Sequence record: NC_070987.1
Reading direction: 5' to 3' (one strand)
Origin: Escherichia phage MN05
DNA: 64,000 nt
The notes under the pieces were generated by a model. That model had not been told where the DNA came from. It saw only the letters and a program-made list of their open reading frames with translations, and made no database searches. The translations under genes were made by a program, and so were the position numbers. Position 1 is the first letter of the stretch; every line of letters begins with the position of its first letter. Below are positions 3,716 through 46,416 of the stretch, in pieces.

Positions 3716-4774
3716 ATGGCTAATCCAACTTTATTTGTATCGTATGACCAGAATGGTAAAAAACTTTCTTTTGCTAACTGGATTTCTGTTCTGTCCCCTC
3801 AGGATACCCCGTTCGTATCCATGACCGGTAAAGAGTCTATCAACCAGACTATCTTTAGCTGGCAGACCGATGCACTGGCAAGCGTTGACGCTAATAACGC
3901 ACACGTTGAAGGTTCTCGTGCGGTTGATGGTGAAATGCAACCTACCGTAATCAAATCCAACGTTACTCAGATTCTGCGTAAGGTTGTTAAAGTTTCTGAT
4001 ACCGCTAACACCACCGCTAACTACGGTCGTGGTCGTGAACTGATGTACCAGCTGGAGAAGAAAGGTAAAGAGATCAAACGTGACCTCGAGAAAATTCTTC
4101 TGTCCGGTCAGGCTCGTACCGACGTTCTGGCTGACCAGTACCTGACTAACTCTGCCGCTGACCCAGATCAGATTGGTAAGAACGACGCTCATGCAGCTCG
4201 TAAGACTGGTGCTTTCCAGTTCCTGTGTGCTCACGGTGGTCTGGCTGGCGGCGTTGTTGACAAGACCAAGAATGGTCCTGCTGACCCAGATACTGGTGCA
4301 GTAACTGTTAAGGTTGCACAGAACGCTTCTAACCCGGCTACTAACATCGGCTTTGATGAAGCAGATATCTTTGATATGACTCTGCAACTGTACACCGCTG
4401 GTTCTGAAGCAGATATCATCATGATTAACCCGGCTCATGCTAAAATCTTCGCTGGCCTGCAAGAGAACACTCAGGGTTCACGTAAACGTATCTTTGAGAA
4501 CACCAAGCAGTTCATCTACGAAGTTAACAGCATCACTGACCCGCTGGGCCAGAGCTACAAAATCATCGTTAACCGTTGGATGCCTACCGATGCAGTTTAC
4601 TTCTTCCGTAGCGCTGACTGGACCCAGATGGTTCTGCGTGCTCCGAAACGTACTGAACTGGCAAAAGATGGTTCTTACGAGAAGTGGATGATTGAGATGG
4701 AAGTTGGTCTGCGTCACCGCAACCCATATGCTTCCGGCGTTCTGTTCACTGCTGCGGGAAAGGCGGCGGCGTAA
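3716..4774 (+). CDS. major capsid protein
   Basis: 352 aa ORF with strong RBS (AGGAGC 7 nt upstream); position after scaffold; sequence character typical of HK97-fold capsid proteins. Confidence 0.65.
   Translation: MANPTLFVSYDQNGKKLSFANWISVLSPQDTPFVSMTGKESINQTIFSWQTDALASVDANNAHVEGSRAVDGEMQPTVIKSNVTQILRKVVKVSDTANTTANYGRGRELMYQLEKKGKEIKRDLEKILLSGQARTDVLADQYLTNSAADPDQIGKNDAHAARKTGAFQFLCAHGGLAGGVVDKTKNGPADPDTGAVTVKVAQNASNPATNIGFDEADIFDMTLQLYTAGSEADIIMINPAHAKIFAGLQENTQGSRKRIFENTKQFIYEVNSITDPLGQSYKIIVNRWMPTDAVYFFRSADWTQMVLRAPKRTELAKDGSYEKWMIEMEVGLRHRNPYASGVLFTAAGKAAA

Positions 4775-29431: not shown

Positions 29432-29441
<10 letters not shown>
28905..29441 (-). CDS. hypothetical protein
   Basis: 178 aa ORF with helical N-terminus, translationally coupled to neighbours. 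Confidence 0.3.
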
Positions 29442-30725
<1,284 letters not shown>

Positions 30726-38035: not shown

Positions 38036-38103
38036 ATTTATTACCTAAGAAGTTTAATTTGGTTTATATAAAAGAAAAGGCCACCCATTTGGGTAGCCTT
38101 ATA

Positions 38104-38421
38104 TTACGATGAGCTTAAAGCTCCTTTTCGTGCTCCAGCCGCTTTTCCAGCTCGATTACCACTTTTGCCGCCGTTTGAACGGTTTGAGCTGACTGATTCA
38201 ACACGTAAGTTGCTTGACGCATTAGAGCCTCCAGACTTGACAGCTCGTTTGTGTCCAACATCTTTACCTCTGACAGCAGCTTTTCCATCGCGCTTTTCAA
38301 CGATGCGACGTGCACGGTGGCGCTGAGCATCTCCGCTCTTGCTCCCAACGCCTGTTTCACCACGGGCAATTGCGGTACGTCTTTCTTGTGCATAATCTCT
38401 CTTTCCTACATGGTCTGCCAT
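38104..38421 (-). CDS. basic low-complexity protein (alternative-frame ORF 38115..38393 also possible)
   Basis: 105 aa, K/R/G/S-rich; AAGGAG RBS 6 nt upstream of ATG; a 92-aa helical ORF overlaps in another frame. Confidence 0.35.
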   Translation of the reverse strand: MADHVGKRDYAQERRTAIARGETGVGSKSGDAQRHRARRIVEKRDGKAAVRGKDVGHKRAVKSGGSNASSNLRVESVSSNRSNGGKSGNRAGKAAGARKGALSSS

Positions 38422-38454
38422 TTAAAACTCCTTAATATATCAGTGTACACTAAG

Positions 38455-38470
38455 GAGTATACATTATAAG
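38455..38470 (-). promoter_or_regulatory. putative promoter with TAATGTATA element (minus strand)
   Basis: minus-strand CTTATAATGTATACTCC about 37 nt upstream of the ATG at 38421, just after the PhoH stop. Confidence 0.45.
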
Positions 38471-38477
38471 TTACTGT

Positions 38478-39215
38478 TTAAGCTTTCTTTTCCATTGCTT
38501 TAACAATCGCCTTACAGAAACCAGAACGAACAATGTCATCTGATTCCCCATCTACAATCTCAGCAAACTCATACAGATCATGTTCATCAATAAAGTTAGT
38601 AGCCCAAGTAAGACCACTCTCACGACCACGCATATCATGCTGGTTAGTATCACCCATGCAGAACAGTTGAGAGGTTTCTCCCAATCGAGTCATGATTGAG
38701 AAGGCTTCATCTTTAGTGGTGTTCTGGAACTCATCAACAATAACAATAGCATCATTGAAAGAACGACCACGGAGATATTCCAGAGGTACGAACTCAATGT
38801 TACTGTTACCGAGCTGGCATTCATAGAACCCCTTACCGTATCGCTGAGTAATAACATCAATGATAGGCATCAGGTAAGGTTCAAACTTCTCGCGCATTCC
38901 TCCCGGAAGTAACCCAAGAGAGTTACCCATGCCGACCGAAGGGCGACTCAGAATGATCTTCTGAATCTTACCGCTCTTCAGTGCGTCAATAACTGTGGAA
39001 GTGATTACAAAGGTCTTACCACAGCCCGCAGGAGCGTCTGTGAACACAACTTGTTTAGTCTTAATAGCATTGAGTAGCTCAGACTGAAACTGGTTCTGAG
39101 GGACTACAGGCTTTGCTAAAACCACCTCTTCAAACTCTCGCTTACCTTTACGAGTAACAAGTGCTTCCCGACGAAGGTCTTTCCGTGATTCTTTCCGTGA
39201 TTGACGACGACTCAT
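38478..39215 (-). CDS. phoH: PhoH-like ATPase
   Basis: 245 aa; Walker A APAGCGKTF, LGLLPGGMREKFEPY and IVIVDEFQN match PhoH family signatures. Confidence 0.75.
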   Translation of the reverse strand: MSRRQSRKESRKDLRREALVTRKGKREFEEVVLAKPVVPQNQFQSELLNAIKTKQVVFTDAPAGCGKTFVITSTVIDALKSGKIQKIILSRPSVGMGNSLGLLPGGMREKFEPYLMPIIDVITQRYGKGFYECQLGNSNIEFVPLEYLRGRSFNDAIVIVDEFQNTTKDEAFSIMTRLGETSQLFCMGDTNQHDMRGRESGLTWATNFIDEHDLYEFAEIVDGESDDIVRSGFCKAIVKAMEKKA

Positions 39216-39409
39216 TTACGCTCTCCAATTTCTTCGTAATGACACTCAGTAGTTAAACAATCTTTACAGATTGCTGTGTAAACCCTGACGTTAGTAAATC
39301 GTTTGTTCTTCCCTTTGGTTGGAGAGCCTTTGGCAAGCTCTCTGATAACCTTGTTACTTAAATGAAGGTTTGTTCCTTCACATCTAGAGCACTTCACCAC
39401 AATGTCCAT
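39212..39409 (-). CDS. zinc-ribbon small protein
   Basis: 65 aa with CSRC...CKDC cysteine pairs. Confidence 0.35.
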   Translation of the reverse strand: MDIVVKCSRCEGTNLHLSNKVIRELAKGSPTKGKNKRFTNVRVYTAICKDCLTTECHYEEIGERK

Positions 39410-39594
39410 TCAGTAAGAGACCACAGAGAGTCACCTATGTTGGCATTGTCATTCCTGATGAGGTCTTTGATTTTATCAACATCAGTTAAGTGAGTCACAT
39501 TCAAAATATCCTCAACATCCGGGGCATATTTAAATATGGCAACAATACTGTTGTGATCTTCAGCATATCTTTCTAGAACATAAACTACGCTCAT
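39394..39594 (-). CDS. hypothetical protein
   Basis: 66 aa ORF. Confidence 0.3.
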   Translation of the reverse strand: MSVVYVLERYAEDHNSIVAIFKYAPDVEDILNVTHLTDVDKIKDLIRNDNANIGDSLWSLTEWTLW

Positions 39595-39914
39595 GCGACG
39601 TTAACCTCTTTATGAAGTCTGTAAACGGCTGTCGCCATACAAGCAACAGCCTCATTGTGTGGGAGATGCATACCTGTAGAACCATCCCAATCTCTGAACT
39701 CATTGTCAAAGACTCCGGTAGGCTCTGGATACAAGGCTTGCAACTCAACCAAATCATTAGCAACTTGTTGCCATTTATCATCAGACCAGATAGGGTCATC
39801 CAACCAGTAATACAAATAGGAATGGATGATCAATTGCCTTCTATGCCGATTAATTACTTCAGCGGGACTTATCTCACTTCCATTTGAAGTCCTAAATGTA
39901 TTACTGTCAATCAT
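39591..39914 (-). CDS. standalone NAD-dependent DNA ligase domain Ia-like protein
   Basis: 107 aa; RHRRQLIIHSYLYYWLDDPIWSDDKWQQVANDLVELQALYPE parallels the LigA N-terminal Ia motif (R..L..H.YLY..D.P.I.D..YD.L..EL..L...PE). Confidence 0.45.
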   Translation of the reverse strand: MIDSNTFRTSNGSEISPAEVINRHRRQLIIHSYLYYWLDDPIWSDDKWQQVANDLVELQALYPEPTGVFDNEFRDWDGSTGMHLPHNEAVACMATAVYRLHKEVNVA

Positions 39915-40165
39915 TTCACAACCTTAAATTTGAATGTTGTTGGGTGATAATAGTGCAACCTGTTAATGGTGTGCTTTGTTTCAAGATATATCCTACAAGA
40001 GTGACACATCACATGATTTAGACCAGTCACAGGATTGGGCTTAAAGTTGGCGATAGGCTTCTCTTTCTTACAGAAGCTACAGATCTTCTTTTCCATCTTT
40101 TCTCCAGTGGTCAACGAATTGCTGAAACACTTTATGGTCGAATGTGAAACCGCTAGCAATTCCAC
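39911..40165 (-). CDS. zinc-finger small protein, hypothetical
   Basis: CSFC...CHSC cysteine pairs; start probably at an internal Met. Confidence 0.3.
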   Translation of the reverse strand: MELLAVSHSTIKCFSNSLTTGEKMEKKICSFCKKEKPIANFKPNPVTGLNHVMCHSCRIYLETKHTINRLHYYHPTTFKFKVVK

Positions 40166-40310
40166 ACTCTACGAAAGTAGAAGGCATATAGTCTATATCA
40201 TCTTTAGATGTATGACCATAAACTTGAATAAGCTTTTTAATCTTATCCTTCTCTCTTCGAGGAAGCATTCTAAATGCCTCCTGAATATCTGTAATATGTT
40301 TGATTTTCAT
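40077..40310 (-). CDS. hypothetical protein
   Basis: 77 aa ORF. Confidence 0.3.
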   Translation of the reverse strand: MKIKHITDIQEAFRMLPRREKDKIKKLIQVYGHTSKDDIDYMPSTFVECGIASGFTFDHKVFQQFVDHWRKDGKEDL

Positions 40311-40456
40311 CAGAAATTCCTGCTAATCCTCTGAGTTGTGGGAACAGCAATATTCACATACTCCACAACAAGGGCAGATTTCTACACTTGGGTCATATGC
40401 ATCATCAACTGTCATCCCACACTTGGTGCAGAACACATCGTCATCTTCTTCCAACA

Positions 40457-41113
40457 TTAACTCTCCAAAGTTTTCTTCAGAGCTGCCCACGAGATTGGGT
40501 AGAGCTTAGCCATCTCTTCATCCAGAGATTGAGCAAACACTCGAACTTCATATTGAGCGTGAGAGGAAAGTCGCTGACGACACAACTCAAACCAGCCATA
40601 CAAAGAACCAGTCCACACCCACTCAGTGATCATCCCCTGAGGAAGAACAAATCGAGCTTGCTCTGGTGCAACAAATTCAATCAACTTATCATATGCTGCT
40701 AGAGAGGCTTCATATGCATCGTTAATCAACATTAATGCTTCAGCTCGTTCTCCATTGATGAGTTGAATCCCTGAACCTGCATGGAGGTCCGAAGGTCTCG
40801 CAAAAATCTCTTTAGGGATGAAGACTTCAACTGCTCCATCTTTATACCGCCGGGACATTTCGTTCCACGAGAATCCAACCTGATGCTTGCCCAACTGTCT
40901 CGCAATTGCGATAGGTGCTTTGCATCGGAAACTGACTTGCGGGTGTCGGAATGGGGTAACATGCTTCTCTCTTGCGAGGAAGTTGATGAGACGTTCATCA
41001 CGTTCATTTAAATCACCTTCACGGGTTACGCCAAAGGAAACTCGAGCTGCGTTTACTACGCTACGATCACTTCCCATAGCTTCGATTAATGTTGCTTGTA
41101 ATTGTTCATTCAT
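40457..41113 (-). CDS. thyX: flavin-dependent thymidylate synthase ThyX-like
   Basis: 218 aa; AARVSFG...HVTPFRH, KHQVGFSWNEMSRRY and QARFVLPQGMITEWVWTGSLYGWFELCRQR...HAQYEVR match ThyX blocks, with KHQ in place of canonical RHR. Confidence 0.65.
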   Translation of the reverse strand: MNEQLQATLIEAMGSDRSVVNAARVSFGVTREGDLNERDERLINFLAREKHVTPFRHPQVSFRCKAPIAIARQLGKHQVGFSWNEMSRRYKDGAVEVFIPKEIFARPSDLHAGSGIQLINGERAEALMLINDAYEASLAAYDKLIEFVAPEQARFVLPQGMITEWVWTGSLYGWFELCRQRLSSHAQYEVRVFAQSLDEEMAKLYPISWAALKKTLES

Positions 41114-41128
41114 CCGTGAATTTCCTTA

Positions 41129-41344
41129 TTAATATTCCTTGATTGGAGAAACTACAAAACCACCCAGAACTGACATATGGGATTGTCTTAAACTTACCGT
41201 ATTGACAGGCATTGGTACAACTTTTAAAGCTTTCTTGAAACGACGAGCCTCTTTTCTGGTCTTAAAGTTTTCTGAAAAAGGGACTGGATTGTCCCCCACG
41301 TAATACACCACTGTCCAGAAATATTTAATCTTTTCCATATTCAC
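41129..41344 (-). CDS. small protein, paralog family B
   Basis: 71 aa; FKTRKEARRFKKALK and C-terminal ...KEY resemble the tandem trio at 43200-43815. Confidence 0.4.
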   Translation of the reverse strand: MNMEKIKYFWTVVYYVGDNPVPFSENFKTRKEARRFKKALKVVPMPVNTVSLRQSHMSVLGGFVVSPIKEY

Positions 41345-41616
41345 TTAACACCTAAAGCTGTGTCCAAAAATGCTTTCAGGTTTGCTTCAGTCTGCATACC
41401 AGAGAGGCTGTAATGTGCACCACTGTTACGATCAGGCACAACGAAAGCAGGGATGCTTCGTACACCATACTTAACAGCTTGCTCACGACCATCACCTTCA
41501 AGGATGTTAATCTCTTCCACTTCTACATCAAACTCCTTAACAACCTTCTCAAAGGTAGGAGCCATTGCTTTACATGGAGCACACTGATCACTATAAAACT
41601 TAATTACTTTACTCAT
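41341..41616 (-). CDS. thioredoxin/glutaredoxin-like protein
   Basis: about 90 aa from MSKVIKF; CAPC redox motif and thioredoxin-fold-like layout. Confidence 0.5.
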   Translation of the reverse strand: MSKVIKFYSDQCAPCKAMAPTFEKVVKEFDVEVEEINILEGDGREQAVKYGVRSIPAFVVPDRNSGAHYSLSGMQTEANLKAFLDTALGVK

Positions 41617-41806
41617 TCTATTCCTTGTTAATAAACAGGTTGATATGACGCTGGGTAGCAGGAACAACAATAAAAGATTTATACTGACCTTTTGCTAGGT
41701 CATGAGCAATCTTCTTTGTCTGACCAAGACCCATCACACAGCCACTAACGATAATGGCATGTGCTTGTAATTCTTCAGGTAGGTTTAGTTTCACTCTTTG
41801 GATCCC

Positions 41807-41992
41807 TTATAGCATACAAAGAATAATAACAAGAGGTAGTGTTATAGCAAAATGTACCAGAACAACACTACCTAGCTTGATAGCTTTAACATCCTCTTCT
41901 GCTGGGTTTTCTTTAATTGCTAAATTTCGAGCTTTATATATAACAGTACCAACTATTAACGACCACACGGCCCACACAATCAGTGAAATCAT
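41807..41992 (-). CDS. small two-TM membrane protein (paralog family D)
   Basis: 61 aa; MISLIVWAVWSLIVGTVIY ... VVLVHFAITLPLVIIL. Confidence 0.4.
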   Translation of the reverse strand: MISLIVWAVWSLIVGTVIYKARNLAIKENPAEEDVKAIKLGSVVLVHFAITLPLVIILCML

Positions 41993-42001
41993 ATCAAACC
42001 C

Positions 42002-42181
42002 TTATGCAGTCAGGAGGTGAAGCAGGAATGGGATAACAACAGCTACGATAACCATGATAGTTGATGCTGTTTGAATCTCACCTTTCTTATCAGGAGTTTC
42101 TTCAATAAGCTTACCAGAAGCCCAATAAATACCACCACCAATAAAGATAGCCCAAATACCCCATACGATTGCTGATAACAT
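42002..42181 (-). CDS. small two-TM membrane protein (paralog family D; hand-translated)
   Basis: 59 aa MLSAIVWGIWAIFIGGGIYWASGKLIEETPDKKGEIQTASTIMVIVAVVIPFLLHLLTA, paralogous to 41807..41992; replaces listed ORF 42043..42315. Confidence 0.45.
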   Translation of the reverse strand: MLSAIVWGIWAIFIGGGIYWASGKLIEETPDKKGEIQTASTIMVIVAVVIPFLLHLLTA

Positions 42182-42241
42182 ATATCTATATCCTTATAAA
42201 TAAGTTCGCCCCACCTCGGGTTAGGAGACAGGGCGGAGGTT

Positions 42242-44561: not shown

Positions 44562-45860
44562 TTAGTTATTTGTTTCTACGTCAAAAGAGATTCCACGACC
44601 CGCCTCATCGGCAAACCGAACTGTACGGGTTTGAGGTTCTAATATTTCAGGGTTGTCAGCAACAAAGCGATCAGCGAGACTCTGGTTGACAGTCTCAGCG
44701 AGTTCCCCATGAGAAGGAATATCAAAATCACCAACAGCGAAACCCTGACCAGAGAACTGACGTGCACTAACAGTCAAACCATTTGATTGACCATTAGAAC
44801 GTCTAGACAACCATCGCCCAAATGAATCGCTAGTAACACCAAGAGCTTCTTCAAAAGATGTTCTCCGGGTAGAGCTTAGGTTTCGTGCTTCGTTTGCTCG
44901 ACGTCTTGCAGGGGCTACAAACACCCCTTCAACTGCATTGTGCCGATTAGGTTCATCTTCTCGACCAAGGAGATCTCCTCCTGTATTGGTTGTTAAGTTT
45001 GTCAACCCTTCAGACCAATACGCACTAATCTGACTAGATCCATGAACACTTGACATTAACTGGATTTCTTCATAAGGGATTCCAAAGAATCGACTCATGT
45101 CTTGGTCAACACAATATTGAGGACTTGCTGTGTCGCCAATAAGAGATACTTGACCTTGGTTATTAACCAGATCCCTGACCATCTGAGGTATAGGTTGTTG
45201 CCGAGCATGTGCCATATAATGAAAAGCAACTCCCGGGGTTTGGAACCTTAACACTTGTGAGTTAGGCCACTTCTTGTGGACATATTTAATCTCTCGAGCA
45301 GTCACAACCACTGGAATTGGAGAAGTCATAGCCAAGTATCCATGAACGGTCATGAATAGCTTATCAAGAGTCATAGCACCACGACACATCATAGGAAAAT
45401 TATCTAGAACCTCTTCGATAGAGGTGGGATAGTTAAACATGAATTGGATTCGCGTTCCATGCCACTGAAATTCAATGATATCAGTGAATGTTAATTGAGA
45501 AGTTCCTGCATATGGCTCATCTGTAGCTTCAGCAAGGAGAGACGAATACTCAATATCTTGTGACTCAAGCCACTCTTTCACATTGCTTTCAAGTTCGCTC
45601 CCAAGAGCTTGCCAACGGCCCACTGAAGTGAAAGTGTTTTGTGTTCTTGGTGTTTGCCCTCTGACGATAAAGATATCAATGTCGTGCGGAGCTATGTTAT
45701 TAATAACAGCATCACGAACAGCCCCACCAGTAATGATAGGGCAAATACCGTCTGGAATCAAGTTGTTGTCAATTAATTGTTCAATGAAGTGACGACCAAC
45801 AGTGATATCAGGTTGTTGAGCAACCTTATCTTCAATTTGGTTAATCGGGATAACAATCAT
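44562..45860 (-). CDS. nucleotidyltransferase with CCA-adding-enzyme/poly(A)-polymerase-type head motif
   Basis: about 432 aa from MIVIPINQ; ITGGAVRDAVINNIAPHDIDIFIV matches GGAVRD-x9-DxD of class II tRNA nucleotidyltransferases; remainder without recognisable motifs. Confidence 0.5.
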   Translation of the reverse strand: MIVIPINQIEDKVAQQPDITVGRHFIEQLIDNNLIPDGICPIITGGAVRDAVINNIAPHDIDIFIVRGQTPRTQNTFTSVGRWQALGSELESNVKEWLESQDIEYSSLLAEATDEPYAGTSQLTFTDIIEFQWHGTRIQFMFNYPTSIEEVLDNFPMMCRGAMTLDKLFMTVHGYLAMTSPIPVVVTAREIKYVHKKWPNSQVLRFQTPGVAFHYMAHARQQPIPQMVRDLVNNQGQVSLIGDTASPQYCVDQDMSRFFGIPYEEIQLMSSVHGSSQISAYWSEGLTNLTTNTGGDLLGREDEPNRHNAVEGVFVAPARRRANEARNLSSTRRTSFEEALGVTSDSFGRWLSRRSNGQSNGLTVSARQFSGQGFAVGDFDIPSHGELAETVNQSLADRFVADNPEILEPQTRTVRFADEAGRGISFDVETNN

Positions 45861-45861
45861 T

Positions 45862-46416
45862 TTACATTTTCCAATATAATGAAGGTGGGTCGTAAGGGTC
45901 AAATCCTGTGAGTTCACACAAGTATTTATAAACCTTAACAGTTAAGTTAACGTCCTGTTCACAGTAAGTAAACATATCTTCAGTGAAAGCATCCCATGCT
46001 TCCTCTTGCTCACCGTAATCTCCTTTAAGTTCCTCTAAGAACTCACCCCATTGCTTCAAGCCGTGACCTCTTGGGCCATGTCTAGGGTCACCTTTCGGAT
46101 ACTCAGGACTGTCACCAATACGGTCAGGTTTAAGATATCGACTAAGACACAAGGTGTCGAAGACGTTAAAACGATATTTAATCAGATTGGGATACATCTT
46201 CTTCAGAGCTGGTAAGTCGAAGTCAATAATGTTATGACCCACGAGCACATCAGCTTCTGTAAGTTTACGAATCCCATCTTCAATTTGGTGAGGCCGATAG
46301 CCCCACCTTTCACCAGTTTCAACATCGAAGATGTAAATACACCATACTTTAGTTATGTCATCGTACAGTGCATTACTCTCGATATCAAATGCAAACACTT
46401 TCTTTTTCTTTACCAC
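45862..46416 (-). CDS. DNA polymerase 3'-5' exonuclease domain (T7 gp5 N-terminal-like), separate gene
   Basis: 184 aa; [11 protein letters not shown]...YRP...[12 protein letters not shown]...FDTLCLSRY...[15 protein letters not shown] parallels the T7 DNA polymerase N-terminal exonuclease region. Confidence 0.75.

Follow-up and report, generated by a model that had tools for sequence, protein, structure and literature searches.

Escherichia phage MN05 encodes, within the 64,000-nucleotide stretch of its DNA analyzed here (sequence record NC_070987.1; hereafter the window), a standalone protein of 107 residues that is homologous to the N-terminal domain Ia of NAD+-dependent DNA ligase (LigA) and is not itself a DNA ligase. 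It belongs to Nlig-Ia, a family of more than 1,100 clusters at 50% identity. The function we favor, with moderate confidence, is that of a small, non-catalytic protein that would bind a nicotinamide nucleotide and make the machinery of replication and nick sealing responsive to NAD+/NMN status. The gene appears to be translationally coupled within a phage nucleotide-metabolism and replication operon, and the Ia hairpin of its product would hold NAD+ or NMN using an aromatic pair together with acidic and polar residues. Protein contacts, whether with host LigA, the clamp or the phage replisome, would then tie nicotinamide-nucleotide status to nick sealing. Because the phage, whose replisome is T7-like, encodes no ligase, it presumably depends on the LigA of its host. 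A role as a bulk NAD+ store is less likely.

The region is 93–97% identical to Escherichia phages SR02, NJ01, 172-1 and Bas90. The protein is 95% identical to phi32_62 (gp62) of phage phiEco32, where it is annotated "DNA ligase", and orthologs in Kuravirus genomes share 95–99% identity. MN05 is therefore a phiEco32-like Kuravirus (Gordonclarkvirinae), and the window corresponds to approximately positions 3,744–67,184 of the 77.5-kb phiEco32 genome. A preliminary description of this DNA, made from the letters alone, had reported an open reading frame (ORF) of 107 codons at this site. The ORF list agrees on its limits and length and assigns it to the minus strand (Table 1), and the peptide quoted in that description corresponds to residues 23–64 of the protein. 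A search of the window with a family hidden Markov model (HMM) finds this copy and no other. Through ATGA overlaps, the ORF shares its start codon with the stop of the upstream ORF and its stop codon with the start of a downstream 66-aa ORF; together with an AAGG element upstream of the start, these overlaps make it look like a normal, translationally coupled phage gene. It lies in a probable transcription unit with the gene order thioredoxin, ThyX, small ORFs, Nlig-Ia, two small ORFs and a PhoH-like ATPase, and the same order is annotated in Bas90 and phiEco32. A scan for sigma-70 promoters returned fewer sites than shuffled sequences did, and so gives no evidence for promoters.

Table 1 Features of the MN05 window around the Nlig-Ia gene, and related loci in other sequences.
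Feature	Sequence	Position	Strand	Remarks
Standalone Nlig-Ia ORF	MN05 window	39591..39914	-	Complete, 107 aa plus stop; ortholog of phiEco32 gp62
LigA domain Ia-homologous part	MN05 window	39717..39872	-	Residues 15–66; two-helix hairpin
Family-specific C-terminal half	MN05 window	39594..39716	-	Residues 67–107; invariant columns
Shine-Dalgarno-like AAGG	MN05 window	39922..39925	-	7 nt upstream of the Nlig-Ia ATG; read from the sequence
Probable transcription unit	MN05 window	38077..42235	-	Between terminator-like hairpins; terminator scan, consensus match only
Thioredoxin	MN05 window	41341..41670	-	In the probable transcription unit; Pfam on neighbors
ThyX	MN05 window	40457..41113	-	In the probable transcription unit; Pfam on neighbors
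PhoH-like ATPase	MN05 window	38478..39215	-	In the probable transcription unit; Pfam on neighbors
Cys-rich zinc-ribbon-like ORF (PHROG 15951)	MN05 window	39911..40165	-	Directly upstream of Nlig-Ia; probable start at an internal ATG, about 61 aa; as listed, overlaps the PHROG 4452 ORF
"Anti-restriction nuclease" ORF (PHROG 4452)	MN05 window	40077..40310	-	Upstream of Nlig-Ia
Two small downstream ORFs	MN05 window	39394..39594, 39212..39409		PHROGs without assigned function
451-aa "nucleotidyltransferase" (PHROG 12715)	MN05 window	44562..45917	-	Only candidate ligase partner
Solo Nlig-Ia protein	NC_010324.1	44230-44559		
Solo Nlig-Ia protein	PQ850626.1	41871-42194		
Solo Nlig-Ia protein	NC_018835.1			
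Clamp-tailed Nlig-Ia copy	L017	5962-6330		Other clamp-tailed copies include proteins P0018, P0028, P0029, P0062 and P0108
Clamp-tailed Nlig-Ia copy	L018	5938-6423		
gp102, Rhodococcus phage ReqiPoco6	L012	3959-5584		541 aa; fusion of Nlig-Ia and an SF2 helicase-like ATPase

The resemblance to domain Ia that the preliminary description had proposed is confirmed by profile, alignment and structure comparisons. The protein matches PF22745, a dedicated Pfam-A model described as "Nlig-Ia: DNA ligase-like, N-terminal NAD+-binding domain", over profile positions 1–91 of 92 (E 3.6e-35; 120.9 bits against a gathering cut-off of 27); all 64 aligned homologs match this model as well, and PHROG 6466, labeled "DNA ligase", is matched at E 9.8e-42. 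Direct comparison with full LigA models and PDB chains is weak (E 0.003–0.1, with 16 and 13.8 bits for the NCBIfam LigA models against cut-offs of 369 and 444) and always falls on the LigA N-terminus. When a profile of the 64 homologs is aligned with the E. coli LigA of the MG1655 record, hhalign gives a probability of 93.4% (E 2.5e-7) and pairs residues 15–66 with LigA residues 2–53 at a constant offset of 13. An AlphaFold2 model built on the 64-homolog alignment (pLDDT 91.3, pTM 0.82) has helices at residues 17–37, 45–61, 70–73 and 88–106. In a Foldseek search of the PDB with this model, the best 24 matches are all NAD+-dependent DNA ligases, several of which superpose at 0.6–1.1 Å over about 47 residues. 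Structural matches to the whole model are found only in BFVD, among many small viral proteins (TMq 0.7–0.9). A secondary Pfam match to Imm41 (E 3e-4) is noise, as only 4 of the 64 family members match it, all below threshold. The protein thus shares with LigA domain Ia (E. coli residues 1–69; PDB 5tt5, 1dgs, 1ta8) a homologous two-helix hairpin and the pattern HxYxYY/H...D..[YW][DQ]. Unlike LigA, it has no adenylation, OB, Zn, HhH or BRCT domain attached, and an extra conserved loop and third helix stand where LigA has a linker.

Sriskanda and Shuman reportedly identified, in 2002, Tyr22, His23, Asp32, Tyr35 and Asp36 as the five Ia residues essential for adenylation. Their study is cited in a review that describes stacking of the NAD+ nicotinamide on paired Ia tyrosines (PMC7470946). 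We surveyed the five positions in the LigA alignment and across 273 family sequences aligned with an HMM. The equivalents of Tyr22 and His23, family positions 35 and 36, are each Tyr in 271 of the 273, and the equivalent of Asp32 (position 45) is Asp in 272. At position 48, where LigA has Tyr35, the residue is aromatic in 272 sequences and is usually Trp (Trp 245, Phe 20, Tyr 7), and at position 49 Asp36 of LigA is usually replaced by Gln (Gln 211, or 77%; Asp 38, or 14%; Ser 8, Thr 6, Asn 3), with Gln or Asp in 249 of the 273. In the MN05 protein these residues are Y35, Y36, D45, W48 and Q49; Arg12 and His18 of LigA are also conserved, as R25 and H31. The NMN pocket is therefore retained apart from two recurrent exchanges, Trp for Tyr and Gln for Asp, and its aromatic and acidic/polar character is maintained throughout the family. 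Binding of NAD+ or NMN is predicted from residue conservation only. The two substitutions, Tyr35 to Trp and Asp36 to Gln, are both present in the MN05 protein and speak against this prediction.

The C-terminal half carries a second conserved element. An invariant block, F73-x-x-W76-D-G-S-T-G-M-H-L-P85 (F..W.GSTG.HLP), is followed by the helix at residues 88–106, and in the 273-sequence alignment the C-terminal 40 residues are conserved as strongly as the pocket (F73 in all 273 and G81 in 269; also W/F76, G78, T/S80, H83, L84 and P85). This half does not align with LigA, either by hhalign or in the PDB sequence alignments. The glycine-rich loop (DGSTGMHLP) and the third helix complete the fold and putatively close the ligand site, where they would stand in for the adenylation domain, which completes the site in LigA.

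Solo Nlig-Ia proteins are already known: the family is defined as PF22745, and the case chosen to illustrate it in print comes from the phage group of MN05. In section 3.5.1 of their study, Iyer, Burroughs, Anantharaman and Aravind (2022; Viruses 14:1977, PMC9503650) gave the domain its name and described it "as a solo protein in 81 phages", their example being ECBP2_0056 of Escherichia phage ECBP2. According to that study, the ligase catalytic module is missing in all but one of the 81 phages, the ligand-binding residues are conserved in the solo proteins, and the proposed roles are a sensor of NAD+ or a shield of NAD+ from NADase effectors (PMC9503650). The modulator or decoy of host LigA or NAD+ metabolism suggested in the preliminary description comes close to these roles and is a plausible hypothesis. 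ECBP2 is Kuravirus-like and is listed among the relatives. We found no experimental work on any family member in the literature, and the 2022 computational paper is the only study found. The MN05 protein itself does not differ from the published solo proteins, with which it shares family, phage group, a single domain of about 100 aa, the absence of a ligase core from the genome and the conserved residues. Our additions are at the level of the family: the two pocket substitutions made explicit, the invariant C-terminal block, and the clamp-motif tails and helicase fusion described below. The words "clamp", "Rhodococcus" and "ReqiP" are absent from the main text of PMC9503650, and "helicase" occurs there twice, both times for other domains.

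The family is almost exclusively viral. A word-indexed search returned 139 homologs, the best 120 of which are all 69–185 aa long and contain PF22745 only, and an exhaustive profile search returned 1,139 clusters at 50% identity (631 at E ≤ 1e-10), the best 150 of which are nearly all 60–190 aa. Full-length LigA does not flood the cluster list, and the solo proteins are therefore a distinct clade. In longer representatives (172–318 aa) Pfam finds Nlig-Ia alone, with no fusion partner. The phage genome collection contains the protein in 275 records from at least 10 host genera, including Escherichia, Arthrobacter, Clostridium, Enterococcus, Erwinia (jumbo phages), Rhodococcus, Carnobacterium and Streptococcus. 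Among 185,579 bacterial and archaeal species genomes there are eight Nlig-Ia loci only, three of which, in Janthinobacterium, Massilia and Paenibacillus, are full solo-type copies. The other five, on SAR324/Deltaproteobacteria MAG contigs (L020–L024), can be ruled out as LigA N-termini, as they are small standalone ORFs of 119–141 aa, stop-to-stop. They combine an Ia-like N-terminal half (HSYLYY...SD..YD) with a different conserved C-terminal half (EASGYSIRQYP...SA.HLLYQ) and perhaps represent another type of solo Ia protein. These numbers point to strong purifying conservation of the family; the retrieved sample is biased toward the query's relatives.

Several observations point toward the replication machinery. 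In all four phage groups examined, the gene is located in or near replication and nucleotide modules. Kuraviruses have it between thioredoxin/ThyX and PhoH, and in Arthrobacter phage Crewmate it adjoins DNA Pol I. Clostridium phage phiCTP1 has it between genes for Pol III beta and Pol III, and in Erwinia phage Phobos thymidylate kinase and thymidylate synthase are encoded no more than a few kb away. Crewmate also encodes a primase-helicase, an exonuclease and thioredoxin; the 101-aa solo protein is the one product annotated "ligase" there. Given how compact phage genomes are, such a location is weak evidence.

A more specific indication comes from the C-termini of a sublineage. Of 266 retrieved members, 25 end in Qxx[LMI]F after a Pro/Ala-rich linker (QMSLF, QASLF, QLSLF, QMALF; QxSLF in short); shuffled sequences end in this motif 0.085 times on average and never more than twice in any of 2,000 trials, and only four internal occurrences are found. 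The tails agree with QLxLF, the consensus of C-terminal beta-clamp-binding motifs (PMC4549789), and the E. coli clamp contacts LigA and favors ligation (PMC9690074). The subclade thus resembles clamp clients such as Pol IV, Hda and transposases in ending with the motif after a disordered linker. The MN05 protein, unlike these, ends in ...HKEVNVA and has no QLxLF-type motif, nor has its clade. The motif occurs in 19 of the 21 members of one cluster (at least 65% core identity) and in three small clusters; this concentration in one sublineage implies few independent events. The copies from Massilia and Janthinobacterium bear the tail, which assigns the subclade to phages or prophages of Burkholderiales. 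In about 13 members that are more distant, the tail is instead Lys-rich and ends in ...K/R-x-LF. The neighborhoods of the tail-bearing members, on metagenomic phage contigs of roughly 91 kb, have almost no Pfam annotation; on two short contigs with a Lys-rich tail, the gene is three genes downstream of RecA in one and beside a PemK-like gene in the other. None of these contexts is informative.

In Rhodococcus phage ReqiPoco6, the domain is fused to a helicase-like ATPase with the motifs GGVGTGKT, DEQR and SATP. The Nlig-Ia part of this protein, gp102, is of the solo type (E 1.2e-32) with the C-terminal block intact. Helicases of this family are found in 351 phage records. At the four other helicase loci examined, from Gordonia, Arthrobacter Niktson, Streptomyces and Lactococcus phages, the family HMM finds no Nlig-Ia ORF in or beside the helicase, so the fusion is sporadic, and on these four loci a Rosetta-stone link between Nlig-Ia and this type of helicase is rejected. 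The MN05 protein has no helicase domain. Together with the C-terminal block and the gene position, the clamp tails and the fusion suggest a nicotinamide-nucleotide-binding module at the replication machinery. They do not make the MN05 finding itself new; what they add to the "sensor or shield" proposal in the literature is a more specific, testable hypothesis of action at the replication fork.

The same observations allow a more elaborate proposal, which we put forward tentatively as possible: the solo protein would be a replisome-associated adaptor or regulator that recruits or licenses host LigA at phage forks, with NAD+ as the bridge. The module would hold the NMN half of NAD+ and dock, through the NAD+, on the adenylation domain of LigA. 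Its tether would differ by lineage, being the beta-clamp tail in Burkholderiales phages, the fused SF2 helicase in Rhodococcus phages, and putative contacts with the T7-like replisome in Kuraviruses. If true, this would be a previously unrecognized route by which ligase-less phages commandeer host nick sealing, and it would tie that nick sealing to NAD+ availability.

We consider it unlikely that the protein is a shield or sponge against NAD+-depleting defense, sequestering NAD+ or an NAD-derived immune signal and so keeping host NADase effectors or signaling from acting. This was the second proposal of Iyer et al. (PMC9503650), and it agrees with the NMN pocket conserved in 273 sequences and with abstracts in the literature that describe NAD+ depletion as a common anti-phage strategy. 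The gene lies in a replication and nucleotide operon rather than in the early small-gene region expected for anti-defense genes, and the clamp-binding tails and helicase fusion of its relatives have no obvious use in a free sponge. Tad1, Tad2 and Acb2 are small, non-enzymatic phage sponges that bind immune signaling nucleotides and are encoded by anti-defense genes. The MN05 protein is likewise small, non-enzymatic and a predicted nucleotide binder, a likeness that favors the shield and concerns the mode of action only: we found no relation in sequence or fold, its gene is in a replication operon, and it would recognize a nicotinamide nucleotide. To our knowledge, the known Thoeris-type signals have no nicotinamide moiety, which is what Ia recognizes, and this too speaks against a sponge. 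Moreover, cellular NAD+ is millimolar, which makes stoichiometric shielding by a protein quantitatively implausible.

The same genome also encodes a protein of the SLOG superfamily, a further predicted NAD/ADPr-binding module that would fit a shield. This 130-aa ORF (29432..29824, minus strand) matches the Pfam family YAcAr (PF10686) at 28.9 bits against a cut-off of 28.2, belongs to PHROG 289 ("GTP-binding domain") and is 93% identical to phiEco32 gp35. SLOG is the other predicted viral sensor of NAD/ADPr derivatives named by Iyer et al. (2022; PMC9503650), so that the MN05 phage has both modules. By tblastn, nothing in the window corresponds to gp37 of phiEco32, a Macro-domain ("Appr-1-p processing") gene whose expected site is near 30465, between a sigma-factor gene (29821..30465) and the next ORFs. 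Its absence from the window indicates that this gene of the NAD/ADPr network is variable among Kuraviruses. As NAD+ is central to research on phage defense, a conserved phage module predicted to bind NAD+ or NMN is a reasonable experimental target.

It is more doubtful that the protein is a competitive inhibitor or decoy of host LigA, blocking adenylation by docking on the adenylation domain or by capturing NMN or NAD+. Its structural mimicry of Ia would suit such a role, and Gln in place of the catalytically essential Asp36 could allow binding without productive chemistry. Asp is, however, retained at position 49 in 14% of members. In addition, the phage and its relatives have no ligase of their own and replicate by means of a primase-helicase, so that inhibiting the sole available ligase would be self-harming.

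The preliminary description had noted no catalytic domain attached or nearby, and had raised the possibility of a split ligase whose core is encoded outside the window. The first point is supported by our searches of the window. A Pfam scan of 20 large ORFs finds no DNA_ligase_aden, OB or ATP-dependent ligase domain; what it does find includes DNA polymerase A, 3'-5' exonuclease, DnaB-type primase-helicase and 5'-3' exonuclease domains, as well as PhoH, ThyX, dCTP deaminase, a Dps-like protein and amidoligases. In tblastn searches with E. coli LigA, the sole match is the Nlig-Ia ORF, both in the window (LigA residues 18–51, E 0.014) and across the whole genome of phiEco32, a close relative (residues 12–51, E 0.015). 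The catalytic part of LigA has no match in either, and the phiEco32 annotation lists no ligase besides gp62, so the second point is not supported. Nothing in the 107-aa protein corresponds to LigA beyond residue 53, and the motif I lysine (KxDG) and the OB domain are absent.

That the solo protein is one subunit of a split NAD+-dependent ligase, with the core in a separate phage gene, is thus very improbable. Many databases label it "DNA ligase", and the 451-aa "nucleotidyltransferase" encoded 4.6 kb away could be cast as its partner. This protein, however, has no sequence match in Pfam, NCBIfam or the PDB and no KxDG. Its residues 64–81 contain GGAVRD...DID, that is, GGxVRD...DxD, the signature of Pol-beta-type class-II CCA-adding and poly(A)-polymerase enzymes. 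It is also limited to Kuravirus-like phages (96 records, all but three listed as Escherichia or Shigella phages), against the 275 records and many genera of the Nlig-Ia protein. These features rule it out as a ligase core, and with no other core found the split-ligase reading is not supported; the absence of any core from 80 of the 81 solo-Nlig-Ia phages of Iyer et al. (PMC9503650) argues in the same direction. The idea that the gene is a functionless, decaying remnant of a full-length phage ligase, of which the N-terminal domain alone is present, has practically no chance of being right and is refuted by the conservation pattern, as hundreds of divergent members share invariant residues, some of them in the C-terminal block for which no LigA counterpart aligns, the ORF is intact with a Shine-Dalgarno element and translational coupling, and the AlphaFold2 model is confident and compact.

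For the MN05 window, the main practical value of these results is correct annotation, as the protein cannot ligate. Many GenBank records of its relatives, for example NC_010324.1, PQ850626.1 and NC_018835.1 (Table 1), name this protein of 107–109 aa "DNA ligase" or "NAD-dependent DNA ligase", and in NJ01 a feature under the match bears the name "isoleucyl-tRNA synthetase"; since a catalytic domain is missing from the protein, these labels are misannotations. Elsewhere in the window, at 49541..57995 on the minus strand, sub-threshold matches to ATP-grasp (RimK/Ddl-like) and glutamine amidotransferase families accompany Amidoligase_2 and phiEco32-type COOH-NH2 ligase genes. This cluster is the known peptide/amide-ligase module of phiEco32.
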